DNA from: Escherichia coli
GTDB taxonomy: Bacteria > Pseudomonadota > Gammaproteobacteria > Enterobacterales > Enterobacteriaceae
DNA length: 64,000 nt
NCBI RefSeq assembly: GCF_002854065.1
Contig: NZ_CP024147.1
Strand: one strand, 5' to 3'
This document shows positions 2,465 to 31,270 of the stretch, piece by piece; within the stretch, counting starts at the first letter, position 1; each line of letters begins with the position of its first letter. The notes beneath the pieces are model-generated. The model was not told where the DNA came from and searched no databases. It worked only from the letters and a program-made list of their open reading frames with translations. The translations under genes were made by a program, and so were the position numbers.

Positions 2465-3298
2465 GTGAAAAAAACACAGCAAAAAGAAATCGAAAATGTG
2501 ACAAATATCACAGGTGTTCGTCAAATTGAGTTATGGCGGCGTGATGATTTACAACACCCACGGTTAGATGAGGTCGCGGAAGAAGTTCCCGTTGCGCTGG
2601 TCTACAACGGCATTTCGCATGTGGTGATGATGGCGTCGCCCAAAGACCTTGAGTACTTTGCGCTCGGTTTTTCGCTTTCCGAGGGGATAATAGAAAGTCC
2701 GCGCGATATCTTCGGCATGGATGTCGTTCCTTCCTGTAATGGTCTTGAAGTACAAATTGAGCTTTCCAGCCGCCGCTTTATGGGGTTGAAGGAGCGCCGC
2801 CGGGCGCTGGCGGGACGTACGGGCTGTGGCGTATGCGGCGTGGAGCAACTTAATGACATCGGAAAACCGGTGCAGCCGCTACCGTTCACCCAGACGTTTG
2901 ATCTCAACAAACTGGATGATGCATTACGTCATCTCAACGATTTTCAGCCAGTGGGGCAACTGACTGGTTGTACTCACGCCGCTGCCTGGATGTTGCCATC
3001 TGGCGAACTGGTCGGCGGGCATGAAGACGTGGGTCGCCATGTGGCGCTGGACAAACTGTTAGGCCGCCGGTCACAAGAAGGGGAAAGCTGGCAGCAAGGT
3101 GCGGTACTGGTTTCCAGTCGTGCCAGTTATGAAATGGTGCAAAAGTCGGCGATGTGCGGCGTAGAGATTTTGTTTGCGGTGTCTGCCGCGACCACGCTTG
3201 CTGTAGAAGTGGCTGAGCGCTGTAATCTGACACTGGTAGGTTTTTGTAAACCGGGTCGGGCAACGGTTTATACCCATCCGCAGCGTTTGAGCAATTAA
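2465..3298 (+). CDS. fdhD: Formate dehydrogenase accessory sulfurtransferase FdhD
   Basis: 277-aa ORF, divergent from fdoG, recognised FdhD sequence. Confidence 0.9.
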
Positions 3299-3303
3299 TT
3301 AAA

Positions 3304-3345
3304 ATAAGTCCTGCGATATATATTAAATTGCAGGACTTATTCATT
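3304..3345 (+). terminator. Inverted repeat after fdhD (ataagtcctgc...gcaggacttat), putative terminator
   Basis: Perfect 11-bp inverted repeat just 3' of the fdhD stop. Confidence 0.4.
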
Positions 3346-3450
3346 TCGTGAATTTTATTATTTTATTTATAAACAAAATGCGTGTAGTGGCGTTTTCTTT
3401 TTTCATTTATTATGTTCACTCTCTTATCTATATATTTATAAGGCAATTAA

Positions 3451-7749: not shown

Positions 7750-8025
7750 GTGGCTTCTGTTTCTATCAGCTGTCCCTCCTGTTCAGCTACTGACGGGGTG
7801 GTGCGTAACGGCAAAAGCACTGCCGGACATCAGCGCTATCTCTGCTCTCACTGCCGTAAAACATGGCAACTGCAGTTCACTTACACCGCTTCTCAACCCG
7901 GTACGCACCAGAAAATCATTGATATGGCCATGAATGGCGTTGGATGCCGGGCAACCGCCCGCATTATGGGCGTTGGCCTCAACACGATTTTCCGCCATTT
8001 AAAAAACTCAGGCCGCAGTCGGTAA
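7750..8025 (+). CDS. insA: IS1 InsA
   Basis: 91-aa ORF identical to copy 1. Confidence 0.9.
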
Positions 8026-8447
8026 CCTCGCGCATACAGCCGGGCAGTGACGTCATCGTCTGCGCGGAAATGGACGAACAGTGGGGATACGTCGGGGCTA
8101 AATCGCGCCAGCGCTGGCTGTTTTACGCGTATGACAGGCTCCGGAAGACGGTTGTTGCGCACGTATTCGGTGAACGCACTATGGCGACGCTGGGGCGTCT
8201 TATGAGCCTGCTGTCACCCTTTGACGTGGTGATATGGATGACGGATGGCTGGCCGCTGTATGAATCCCGCCTGAAGGGAAAGCTGCACGTAATCAGCAAG
8301 CGATATACGCAGCGAATTGAGCGGCATAACCTGAATCTGAGGCAGCACCTGGCACGGCTGGGACGGAAGTCGCTGTCGTTCTCAAAATCGGTGGAGCTGC
8401 ATGACAAAGTCATCGGGCATTATCTGAACATAAAACACTATCAATAA
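7944..8447 (+). CDS. insB: IS1 transposase InsB frame
   Basis: 167-aa ORF identical to copy 1; A6C slippery motif ttaaaaaactc at about 7999-8009. Confidence 0.9.
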
Positions 8448-8462
8448 GTTGGAGTCATTACC

Positions 8463-8564
8463 GGGACGTATTACTCCATTCTGGATAGCGACGGCGATAA
8501 AAAACACGGTGATGATACTGATGACCGTTACGGCGCACGCGTTCGCTTTAAATACTTCTTCTGA
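8463..8564 (+). pseudogene. Displaced 3' end of the porin gene (33 codons including the 9-bp target duplication, then stop)
   Basis: Starts with gggacgtat (reverse complement of 5762-5770) and reads in frame YSILDSDGDKKHGDDTDDRYGARVRFKYFF*, a classic beta-barrel C-terminus with terminal Phe. Confidence 0.65.
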
Positions 8565-8604
8565 TGAAGGCGCGGTGCTGGATATTTTCCGGCACCGCAA
8601 CTCA

Positions 8605-8919
8605 TTAAGGCAGGTAAAACACTTCTTGCAGCTCGCTACTCACCGGGCTGTTATCCGGGTTAGCTGGCATAACGTCGGTCATATATTTCCACCAACGTTG
8701 GCAGATTTCAGTGCTGGCTACCGCATTCCACCGTTCTTCAGATTCAATCTCTACCATGGCAAACAGCAGATTACGCGCTTTGTCGAGGTAAATGGCGTAG
8801 TTATGCGCACCGTGAGATTTCAACACTGCTTCCAGTTCCGGCCAGATGGGGTTATGCCGACGCTGATACTCTTCGTGGGCGTCGGGGTTAACCTGCATGA
8901 CAAAGGCTTTGCGGATCAT
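8605..8919 (-). CDS. rhaM: L-rhamnose mutarotase
   Basis: 104-aa [31 protein letters not shown]...; downstream of rhaD. Confidence 0.9.
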
Positions 8920-8928
8920 GTTTGCTCC

Positions 8929-9753
8929 TTACAGCGCCAGCGCACTGGCTAGTGGTGTAACGCCGAAGCGCTTGCCGAGCGCTATCAACTCTTCACGGCT
9001 GATGGTCTGTTTCATGCCGCCCATCGAATAAATCTTCACTAATACTTGTGCTGATTTTTCTGCGGTGTCGATTAAACCGAATGTTTCATCCAGCGTCGGT
9101 CCGGAACCGAACACACCGTGGAAGGGCCACAACACCAGCGAATGTTTCTGCATCTCTTGTGCGGTCGCCTGGCCGATTTCGTCCGTGCCGGGCACCATCC
9201 ACGGCAGAATGCCAACGCCATCCGGGAATACCACCAGACACTCGGTGCTGCCTTCCCACAGTTGGCGAGTAAAGACCGCGGTGTCGTTTTCCAGTACATA
9301 GGTGAGGGCGATCAGGTTGGTGGCGTGGCAGTGCATGATCACCCGATCTTTACCGTTGGTGGCTTTAATGCGCTCGCAGTGGGAGAGAAAGTGAGCCGGA
9401 AGTTCAGAAGTTGGAACGGCTTCGTTGGTTAACCCCCAGAGAATATGGTAGCCCGCGCCGTCGCTGTCGACTTTTACGACGCCTAAGTTAGCTGCAGGAT
9501 CAAGCTGGACGTTACGGAAGAATTTGCCGGAGCCGGTGACAATAAACGGCGTATTTGCCAGTAAAGGCATGGGCTGGCTGAGCGGAATATAGCGCGGTTG
9601 TGGGTGGAAGTTGTCGTGATAAAGCGCGATATCGGCGTCATCCAGGCGCAGCGTCAGGTTGCCGCCGTTGCGCTCGTCCCAGCCTTTCAGCCAGGCATCG
9701 GTGGTGGCTTTGATCATTCCCTGGACAAACCAGGACTGGGTAATGTTTTGCAT
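8929..9753 (-). CDS. rhaD: Rhamnulose-1-phosphate aldolase
   Basis: Start placed at [25 protein letters not shown] (274 aa); longer ORF-track call runs upstream into the REP array. Confidence 0.9.
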
Positions 9754-9797
9754 GTTCTGTGTTCCTGTAAATTCGGTGTTGTCGGATGCACGACCCG

Positions 9798-10196
9798 TAG
9801 GCCGGATAAGGCGCTCGTGCCGCATCCGGCAATCAATGCCTGATGCGACGCTGTCGCGTCTTATCAGGCCTACAACTATTGCCGACCTGTAGGCCGGATA
9901 AGGCACTTGTGCCGCATCCGGCAATCAATGCCTGATGCGACGCTGTTGCGTCTTATCAGGCCTACAACTGTTGCCGACCTGTAGGCCGGATAAGGCACTT
10001 GTGCCGCATCCGGCAATCAATGCCTGATGCGACGCTGTCGCGTCTTATCAGGCCTACAACTATTGCCGACCTGTAGGCCGGATAAGGCACTTGTGCCGCA
10101 TCCGGCAATCAATGCCTGATGCGATGTCGCGTCTTATCAGGCCTACAACTGTTGCCGACCTGTAGGCCGGATAAGGCACTTGTGCCGCATCCGGCA
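9798..10196. repeat. BIME/REP array: about four tandem ~100-bp units, each with two REP palindromes
   Basis: Unit gtaggccggataaggcRctYgtgccgcatccggcaatcaatgcctgatgcgacgctgtYgcgtcttatcaggcctacaactRttgccgacct repeats head-to-tail with point differences. Confidence 0.85.
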
Positions 10197-10200
10197 GTGT

Positions 10201-13213
<3,013 letters not shown>

Positions 13214-18983: not shown

Positions 18984-19070
18984 TGTAGGCCTGATAAGAC
19001 GCTATCAGCGTCGCATCAGGCATCCTGCTCAAATGCCGGATGCGGCGTAAACGCCTTATCCTGCCTACAA
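18984..19070. repeat. REP/BIME element between yiiM and cpxA
   Basis: gtaggcctgataagacgc...gcgtcgcatcaggc and gccggatgcggcgtaaacgccttatcc palindromes. Confidence 0.6.
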
Positions 19071-24044: not shown

Positions 24045-24158
24045 AAATGCCTGATTCGCTTCGCTTATCAGGCCTACGTGAATTCTGCAATTTATTGAAT
24101 TTACAAACTTTTGTAGGCCGGATAAGGCGTTCGCGCCGCATCCGGCATTGATAAAGCG
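24045..24158. repeat. REP/BIME pair between pfkA and sbp
   Basis: Two REP palindromes separated by attctgcaatttattgaatttacaa. Confidence 0.6.
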
Positions 24159-31161: not shown

Positions 31162-31270
31162 ATGCCGGATGCGGCGTGAACGCCTTATCCCGCCTACACA
31201 AAATGGCATTGGCTCGTAGGCCTGATAAGACGCGTAAGCGTCGCATCAGGCGATCAGCATCAGGCAATCG
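31162..31270. repeat. REP/BIME element between glpX and glpK
   Basis: gccggatgcggcgtgaacgccttatcc and gtaggcctgataagacgcg...cgcatcaggc palindromes. Confidence 0.6.

Follow-up and report, generated by a model that had tools for sequence, protein, structure and literature searches.

A BIME-2-type REP array of variable unit number in the rhaA–rhaD spacer of Escherichia coli

In the Escherichia coli DNA analysed here, a stretch of 64,000 nucleotides referred to below as the window, the rhamnose genes rhaA and rhaD are separated by a spacer of 447 bp (9754-10200) that is filled by a repeat array. The locus raises two questions: to which class of repeat the array belongs, and what an array of this kind does inside an operon. 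The flanking genes were assigned using NCBIfam models together with the RefSeq annotation of NZ_CM128593.1 (E. coli strain 100416), a record that is 100% identical to the window. The genes and the features at the start of rhaD are as follows.

8605-8919, − strand: rhaM (NCBIfam equivalog model and RefSeq annotation)
8929..9753, − strand: rhaD, rhamnulose-1-phosphate aldolase, 274 aa (NCBIfam NF002963, E 7.5e-143, residues 1-273/274; same coordinates in the RefSeq annotation of NZ_CM128593.1)
9754..9796, − strand: rhaD 5' leader, 43 nt from the last REP to the rhaD ATG, with an AGGA Shine-Dalgarno-like motif at 9766-9763, 9 nt ahead of the ATG
9754..9924, − strand: 5' extension of the rhaD ORF, judged spurious, from a TTG start at 9924, entering REPs Y1-Y2
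10201..11460, − strand: rhaA, L-rhamnose isomerase, 419 aa, stop TAA at 10203-10201 (NCBIfam TIGR01748, E 5.8e-250; RefSeq annotation)
11457-12926, − strand: rhaB (NCBIfam equivalog model and RefSeq annotation)

In the transcript, the array thus precedes rhaD, the distal gene. The sequence-only reading had warned that the called rhaD ORF runs into the repeats, and this was borne out: the mechanical ORF (8929-9924, − strand, TTG start, 331 aa) extends 171 nt past the true ATG at 9753. Judging from the protein model, the added stretch is spurious: the 274-position aldolase model is already matched end to end by the product of 274 aa that starts at ATG 9753. An ACAGGAA motif recurs ahead of rhaD in other Enterobacteriaceae. 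A coding reading of the array was rejected, as the small internal ORFs (46-48 aa), like the extended rhaD call, arise as side effects of the repeats. In practice, ORF callers lengthen rhaD by 57 codons, running into the repeat, and the extension is best ignored.

Tandem Repeats Finder (TRF) reported a single array at 9791-10196 with a period of 92, 4.4 copies, 96% matches, no indels scored and a score of 749; a repeat search gave copy spacings of 92, 92 and 89 bp. Parsing the sequence resolved the array into nine REPs, five Y and four Z2, corresponding to four full Z2+Y units plus one extra Y and spanning 9797-10196 from REP to REP. The individual REPs are listed below, with the energies of their hairpins in the mRNA sense and the matches to the Rfam naRNA4 model that is considered further on.

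9797..9831, + strand: Y REP no. 1, GTAG first on the + strand, rhaD-proximal; loop variant GGCGCTCGTGCC; hairpin of −19.5 kcal/mol
9837..9873, − strand: Z2 REP no. 1, GTAG first on the − strand, head-to-head with Y1 via ATCAA; −21.9 kcal/mol; Rfam match 9800-9870 (Y1 and Z2 no. 1), 73.3 bits
9889..9923, + strand: Y REP no. 2, with the preceding 15-nt tail-to-tail linker AACTATTGCCGACCT; −20.0 kcal/mol
9929..9965, − strand: Z2 REP no. 2, with a C-to-T variant in the inner stem; −21.1 kcal/mol; Rfam match 9892-9962, 75 bits
9981..10015, + strand: Y REP no. 3, from sequence parse and fold
10021..10057, − strand: Z2 REP no. 3; Rfam match 9984-10054, 76.6 bits
10073..10107, + strand: Y REP no. 4, from sequence parse and fold
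10113..10146, − strand: Z2 REP no. 4, with a 3-bp deletion (GCGATGTCGCG vs GCGACGCTGTCGCG) and a weaker hairpin, −13.0 vs about −21.9 kcal/mol; Rfam match of 64.1 bits
10162..10196, + strand: Y REP no. 5, rhaA-proximal; its mRNA stem begins 5 nt past the rhaA stop

The REPs alternate strictly in orientation, the heads of Y lying on the − strand and those of Z2 on the + strand. The five Y copies share the consensus GTAGGCCGGATAAGGC(A/G)CT(T/C)GTGCCGCATCCGGCA and the four Z2 copies the consensus TGCCTGATGCGACGCTGT(C/T)GCGTCTTATCAGGCCTAC; the names Y and Z2 are assigned to these sequences partly in line with the published consensus. GTAG stands at the start of all nine REPs, or CTAC at the end when the opposite strand is read, and in the RNA folds each stem is interrupted by an internal mismatch or bulge. 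The GTAG foot and the stem mismatch are recognition features for TnpA-REP. The head-to-head linker is an invariant ATCAA, whose 5 nt are short and consistent with an S linker, and the REPs are joined tail-to-tail by 15 nt, AACT(A/G)TTGCCGACCT. The fourth unit measures 89 bp because its Z2 carries the 3-bp deletion. The A/G variants of the linker alternate in both the window allele and the K-12 allele, and mismatches number 6/236 at lag 92 vs 2/144 at lag 184; a higher-order period of 184 bp is at most suggested by these figures. An inverted-repeat search of the array with a 9-nt exact seed reported no inverted pairs although each REP is palindromic, because the REP arms are 8+4 bp split by a mismatch and fall below the seed.

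Such an array is far from what chance would give: the REP head motif GCCKGATGCGRCR (at most one mismatch) occurs 9 times in the 400 bp of the array and 20 times in the whole window, while shuffles lead to an expectation of 1.29 per 64 kb. TRF, the REP parse and the gene models agree on a repeat array that lies within the operon, in the gap from rhaA to rhaD, as the sequence-only reading had proposed, and its coordinates of 9798-10196 match the parsed span. Its description of the unit held in part: there are two REPs per unit and about four repeats, but the unit is 92 bp, not ~100 bp, and an extra Y is present. The BIME/REP class that it gave can be narrowed to BIME-2, in which Y and Z2 alternate.

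According to the definition given by Ton-Hoang et al. (PMC3333891), a BIME-2 consists of y and z2 REPs in inverse orientation, in multiple tandem copies, with a short S linker, an s/l/r flanking motif and a strain-variable copy number. The array combines Y and Z2 composition, inverted alternation, tandem copies and a strain-variable number with the GTAG foot and a stem mismatch. By its sequence it is thus a textbook BIME-2, and an already known one, as its K-12 counterpart, its class and its unstable copy number are on record in EcoCyc and the literature. In a bioRxiv preprint (10.1101/2024.07.17.603846), the K-12 rhaA-rhaD BIME-2 is given as EcoCyc REP299a-i, inside operon rhaBAD; the same source counts REP299a-i among eight REP regions that are exonuclease-protected under stress, and as the only one of them within an operon. 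The letters a-i are nine, fitting nine REPs. Table DS3 of the gyrase Topo-seq study by Sutormin et al. 2018 (PMC6379681) lists the K-12 element under 'BIMEs2', as 401 bp at rhaA>-rhaD>, with which our Y/Z2 naming agrees.

The window allele and REP299a-i share the locus, the flanking genes, the layout of five Y and four Z2, and identical linkers. Over 1.2 kb the K-12 MG1655 allele is 96.8% identical to the window. The spacer is 450 bp in K-12 vs 447 bp in the window because of the 3-bp deletion in Z2 no. 4. The loop of the rhaA-proximal Y also differs, being the 'internal' GGCACTTGTGCC in the window and GGCGCTCGCGCC in K-12, and K-12 Y2 has a G-to-T change that the window allele lacks. Overall, we consider it very likely that the array is the E. 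coli rhaA-rhaD BIME-2, a homologue of K-12 REP299a-i, with the DNA and RNA routes given below as its proposed mode of action. Two other assignments were rejected. A CRISPR array has identical direct repeats with unique spacers between them, whereas here the 'spacers' are two constant linkers and the palindromes alternate in orientation; Rfam miRNA matches (MIR814, mir-1992; E about 0.7-0.9) fell far under gathering and were taken as chance hairpin matches.

We then used other E. coli genomes to count units at the site. A 1.2-kb query over the site matched in 5,425 of 5,426 complete genomes. Because BLAST coverage does not cleanly separate copy numbers, class counts were taken from two systematic samples down the match ranking (39 + 59 rows at the locus, the record of the window being in both), and one representative per span class was sequence-parsed. 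The spacer alleles were as follows.

82 bp: one Y, 0 units
174 bp: 1 unit (O157:H7)
266 bp: 2 units
358 bp: 3 units
450 bp: 4 units (K-12)
542 bp: 5 units, TRF 5.4 copies (strain 2013C-4465)
184, 276 and 460 bp: 1, 2 and 4 units, a sub-family with a rhaD leader 10 bp longer
241 bp: one Y and a different GC-rich double palindrome

Units are thus gained and lost among E. coli strains in whole 92-bp steps, from 0 to 5, as the predicted copy-number variation had implied. In the samples, whose shares reflect a biased database and not natural frequencies, four units were found in 21 genomes (about 21%), three in 7 (7%), two in 14 (14%), one in 18 (18%), none in 21 (21%) and five in 1; the alternative element accounted for 16 (16%). 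A direct search found the alternative element full-length in 787 of 5,426 genomes (14.5%), in agreement with the sample. Alleles with a single REP make up roughly 37-40% of the sampled genomes. The rhaA-proximal Y REP (no. 5) is the sole part that all examined E. coli alleles share, and in three 0-unit alleles only this position is left. Among sampled genomes, copy number tracks lineage: O157:H7 all have 1 unit and K-12 derivatives all have 4. Strain 2013C-4465 has 5 units vs 1 in O157:H7 strain OK1, and the two share the RhaA accession WP_001301857.1.

The variant with the 3-bp deletion corresponds to a span of 561 bp, which was present in no more than a few assemblies: 7 separate ones among the best 12 records listed, from human, baboon, deer, chicken and meat sources. 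An assembly error confined to the record of the window is unlikely, because the 561-bp span recurs in those 7 assemblies. That REP arrays are targets of insertion sequences, as had also been pointed out, is documented in general for IS1397 and IS621 in the account of PMC1525189; no insertion sequence was seen at the rhaA-rhaD site in about 97 sampled E. coli genomes. Since every unit number from 0 to 5 occurs among the collected genomes, the number as such is probably nearly neutral and weakly constrained.

These alleles have practical consequences. Spacer length (82-542 bp in 92-bp steps, plus the 241-bp alternative) is a simple lineage marker, but it can also mislead short-read assembly and PCR that spans rhaA-rhaD. 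The natural alleles of 0-5 units also offer, in one operon, a ready series in which REP number can be set against mRNA decay, Rho attenuation, stop-proximal translation and gyrase recruitment.

A scan with RhaA, using one genome per species, extended the comparison to at least 80 loci; among those listed, Escherichia was represented by Escherichia sp. ESNIH1 only, and Shigella and Salmonella by none. Among the loci listed, the spacer is 6-12 bp in Serratia, Yersinia, Pantoea, Erwinia, Dickeya, Pectobacterium, Pasteurellaceae and Rhizobium, and 35-466 bp in Enterobacteriaceae closer to E. coli. The spacers of the latter contained the following elements.

Citrobacter youngae, C. werkmanii: Y-like REP pair
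Citrobacter sp. FP75, Kosakonia: single REPs
Pseudocitrobacter, Kluyvera, Enterobacter, Phytobacter: CCCTCTCCC...GGGAGAGGG palindromes
Superficieibacter electus: independent tandem REP array, 49-bp, 8.2 copies

Most of the junction elements in these relatives begin 4-9 nt past the rhaA stop. This position follows from the tiny ancestral gap, in which any insert must fall between the stop and the rhaD ribosome-binding site. The stop-proximal position is therefore expected from geometry and is by itself no evidence of selection. The only angle here that is mildly new is that different repeat families have repeatedly colonised the junction, along with the natural allelic series of 0-5 units.

At the RNA level, the transcribed strand of the array folds at −236.5 kcal/mol (z = −11 vs shuffles). 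Each REP gives a sense-RNA hairpin of −19.5 to −21.9 kcal/mol, apart from Z2 no. 4 at −13.0. Two separate hairpins (−41.9 kcal/mol) and one long Y-Z2 'REPIN' hairpin (−43.7 kcal/mol) are nearly isoenergetic. The rhaA UAA (10203-10201) is followed by ACACU and then by the stem GCCGGAUG, a distance of 5 nt. In a scan of 8400-10600, neither an intrinsic-terminator-like site nor a promoter-like (sigma-70-like) site was found in the spacer (9754-10200), including the stretch from the array to rhaD, and T runs are absent from the linkers after each REP. In light of these two results, rhaD must be transcribed by read-through across nine hairpins. Moralejo et al. 1993 reportedly located promoter activity only upstream of rhaB, and rhaBAD is transcribed only on rhamnose induction, as part of the RhaS/RhaR regulon.

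At other REP/BIME loci, the roles as mRNA stabilisers or attenuators that the sequence-only reading had named are established textbook knowledge. By analogy, effects on mRNA stability, attenuation and translation are plausible at rhaBAD. Nine hairpins of about −20 kcal/mol should block 3'-to-5' exonucleases and would then stabilise the rhaB-rhaA segment relative to rhaD. The 447-nt untranslated gap would uncouple translation from transcription, so that some Rho-dependent attenuation before rhaD is possible; a 2001 study by Espeli and colleagues is said to describe such attenuation. A strongly structured, G+C-balanced array is, however, not an obvious Rho loading site. REPs as stabilisers are treated in literature cited in PMC12306157, which also summarises the finding of Liang et al. 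2015 that a REP at most 15 nt from a stop codon can depress translation of the upstream gene. With its first hairpin 5 nt after the rhaA stop, inside this range, the array may lower RhaA translation. Literature searches returned nothing relevant on rhaBAD transcript processing, ends, half-lives, Rho dependence, REP effects or the RhaA/RhaD ratio, with key REP papers represented by secondary summaries, and nothing on ribosome stalling or lowered RhaA yield. Against a functional mechanism, the polymorphism of 0-5 units argues that no finely tuned function is at work, and more than a third of the sampled genomes are down to a single REP.

At the DNA level, DNA gyrase has been shown to cleave the K-12 allele in vivo. 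Table DS3 of PMC6379681 assigns it 4 sites under Cfx, 2 under RifCfx, 1 under Micro and 0 under Oxo, the conditions in that study being ciprofloxacin, rifampicin+ciprofloxacin, microcin B17 and oxolinic acid. According to published data, gyrase favours y REPs, with a signal that does not depend on transcription. Cleavage by gyrase in K-12, which the sequence-only reading had not raised, is the best-documented activity of the element; it was measured on an allele from which that of the window differs in the terminal Y loop and the 3-bp deletion. By extension, the array would present a strong gyrase site that is independent of transcription. Units may also be added or removed by the REP-associated transposase TnpA-REP, with the array as its substrate, or through homologous mis-alignment.

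Turnover of this kind is also the core of a different explanation, in which the array would be nothing more than selfish or neutral repeat DNA that persists and changes length via TnpA-REP or recombination, with no measurable effect on rhaBAD expression or topology. The copy-number data are consistent with this explanation, as alleles with 0-5 units each occur at appreciable frequency and 787 of 5,426 genomes have a different element in place of the units. So is the same junction in other genera, which holds unrelated repeats or nothing. Cleavage of the K-12 allele by gyrase in vivo argues against an inert element, as does the retention of at least the rhaA-proximal Y REP in all E. coli alleles examined. 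In addition, nine mRNA hairpins of about −20 kcal/mol are unlikely to spare decay and read-through, given that single REPs act elsewhere according to PMC12306157. We therefore regard a purely neutral array as possible but unlikely, and favour a BIME-2 that affects the locus through DNA and RNA.

The opposite view, that the array is an adaptive tuning knob whose unit number sets the ratio of RhaD to RhaA and RhaB, with settings selected by lineage, seems to us doubtful. The discrete 92-bp allele steps, apparently fixed by lineage (1 unit in O157:H7, 4 in K-12 derivatives), speak for it, as does the pair of strains with one RhaA accession, WP_001301857.1, yet 5 units vs 1. The repeated colonisation of the junction by repeat elements across genera points the same way. 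Neutral evolution at a slow mutation rate would, however, lead to lineage-fixed numbers just as well, and the stop-adjacent position is forced by the ancestral spacer of 6-12 bp. It is similarly doubtful, and offered here as speculation, that the rhaA-rhaD junction is a convergently colonised 'hairpin slot' in Enterobacteriaceae, entered by unrelated repeat families shortly past the rhaA stop, under selection for discoordinate, lower expression of rhaD vs rhaBA and with the 0-5 units as a heritable expression dial.

We also considered that the array might be a source of naRNA4-like nucleoid-associated RNAs, or their cruciform DNA partner, condensing the chromosome with HU as proposed for REP325. 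Rfam RF02564 is named for naRNA4, one Y-l-Z2 unit of REP325 (PMC4550694), and on the + strand it matched all four units of the array at 76.6, 75.0, 73.3 and 64.1 bits, over the gathering score of 59.5. In the account of Qian et al. (PMC4550694), moreover, structure matters over sequence and other REP elements join HU-dependent contacts. The matches above threshold lie on the strand antisense to rhaBAD, though, and the − strand, which is the mRNA sense, scored 50.1-53.5 bits, below gathering. The scan of 8400-10600 showed nothing promoter-like on the + strand close to the array, and the operon itself is silent outside rhamnose induction. The Rfam model in effect fits any Y-Z2 unit, so a match denotes membership of a sequence family and not function. 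A nucleoid-associated role of this type is quite improbable for the array.

Finally, the G+C-rich hairpins directly after rhaA might suggest an intrinsic terminator parting rhaBA from an independently transcribed rhaD, but this can be set aside almost completely, since no hairpin is followed by a T/U run, the terminator scan found none in 9754-10200, no promoter-like site lies between the array and rhaD, and promoter activity is reportedly confined to the region upstream of rhaB (Moralejo et al. 1993).

Several other known systems can be compared with the array. BIME-1 elements are likewise inverted pairs of REP palindromes, but according to PMC3333891 they are single-copy, with a Z1 REP and a long IHF-binding linker, whereas the array has Z2, a 5-nt linker and tandem units. 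REP325 (naRNA1-6, between yjdM and yjdN) resembles the array in its tandem Y-linker-Z2 units, of which it has six; it lies at another locus, a different spacer (the 'U' motif) stands between its units, and the orientation that matches its model is antisense to the operon at rhaA-rhaD. HU binding and nucleoid effects have been demonstrated for REP325 only, which the rhaA-rhaD array resembles in sequence. With intercistronic stabilisers of the malE-malF type, the array shares a place between cistrons of one operon and hairpins that are stable in the sense transcript, but it has nine hairpins where those have one or two. As in the REPs within 15 nt of a stop described by Liang, Rudd & Deutscher 2015, a rule taken here from its summary in PMC12306157, the first stem of the array lies close to the stop, at 5 nt.

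No other REP cluster in the window comes close to the rha array in size. Further Y and Z2 REP heads, paired or single, occur at 19009-19047, 24134-24146, 31164-31251 and 44963-44975. Features at the rhaA-rhaD junction, here and in other genomes:

Window 10113-10146: fourth Z2 REP of the array, with a 3-bp deletion
L009:474-655 and L010 (E. coli HUSEC2011, ATCC 43896): alternative rhaA-rhaD allele, at the site equivalent to window 9773-9790
L022:3303-3707 (Superficieibacter electus): independent tandem REP array, 49-bp period, 8.2 copies, 92% matches

RhaA has one and the same accession (WP_001301857.1) in strain 2013C-4465 and in O157:H7 strain OK1, and the two also have leader and linker variants in common. 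Despite this, the former carries five units (L011:3968-4509) and the latter one (L006:455-628). The comparison suggests that the number of units can change from one close relative to another. Just past rhaM, the annotation of the source record includes a 'carbohydrate porin' pseudogene, which is truncated (window ~7900-8565; L092:1-665). The porin gene is intact in the frvA-rhaM interval of strain 2013C-4465 (L011:1384-2778) and is not present in K-12 MG1655 (L001).

The 3-bp deletion weakens the hairpin of the fourth Z2 REP from approximately -21.9 to -13.0 kcal/mol. Because a 561-bp span of the deletion allele is common to at least seven assemblies from different hosts (seven among the best 12 records listed), the deletion appears to be a minor allele and not an error of the window's assembly alone. 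The alternative allele contains a single Y REP and a ~160-bp double palindromic element (CCCCTCACCCTAACCCTCTCCCC...GGGAGAGGGCCGGGGTGAGGG), which resembles 'box C' and is at most a candidate for it. The full-length element was present in 787 of the 5,426 E. coli genomes, and its 57-nt core is dispersed, with a median of 3 sites per genome.

Among the loci listed from other species (L012-L072, junction at ~3260-3400 in each), rhaA and rhaD are separated by 6-12 bp in distant Enterobacterales, in Pasteurellaceae and in Rhizobium. For Citrobacter, Enterobacter, Kluyvera, Pseudocitrobacter and genera like them, the spacer measures 35-166 bp. The longer spacers contain REPs or CCCTCTCCC/GGGAGAGGG palindromes, usually starting 4-9 nt past the rhaA stop codon. 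In Superficieibacter electus, the tandem array occupies this same junction and makes the spacer 466 bp long; its REP is species-specific and differs from those of the E. coli rha array.
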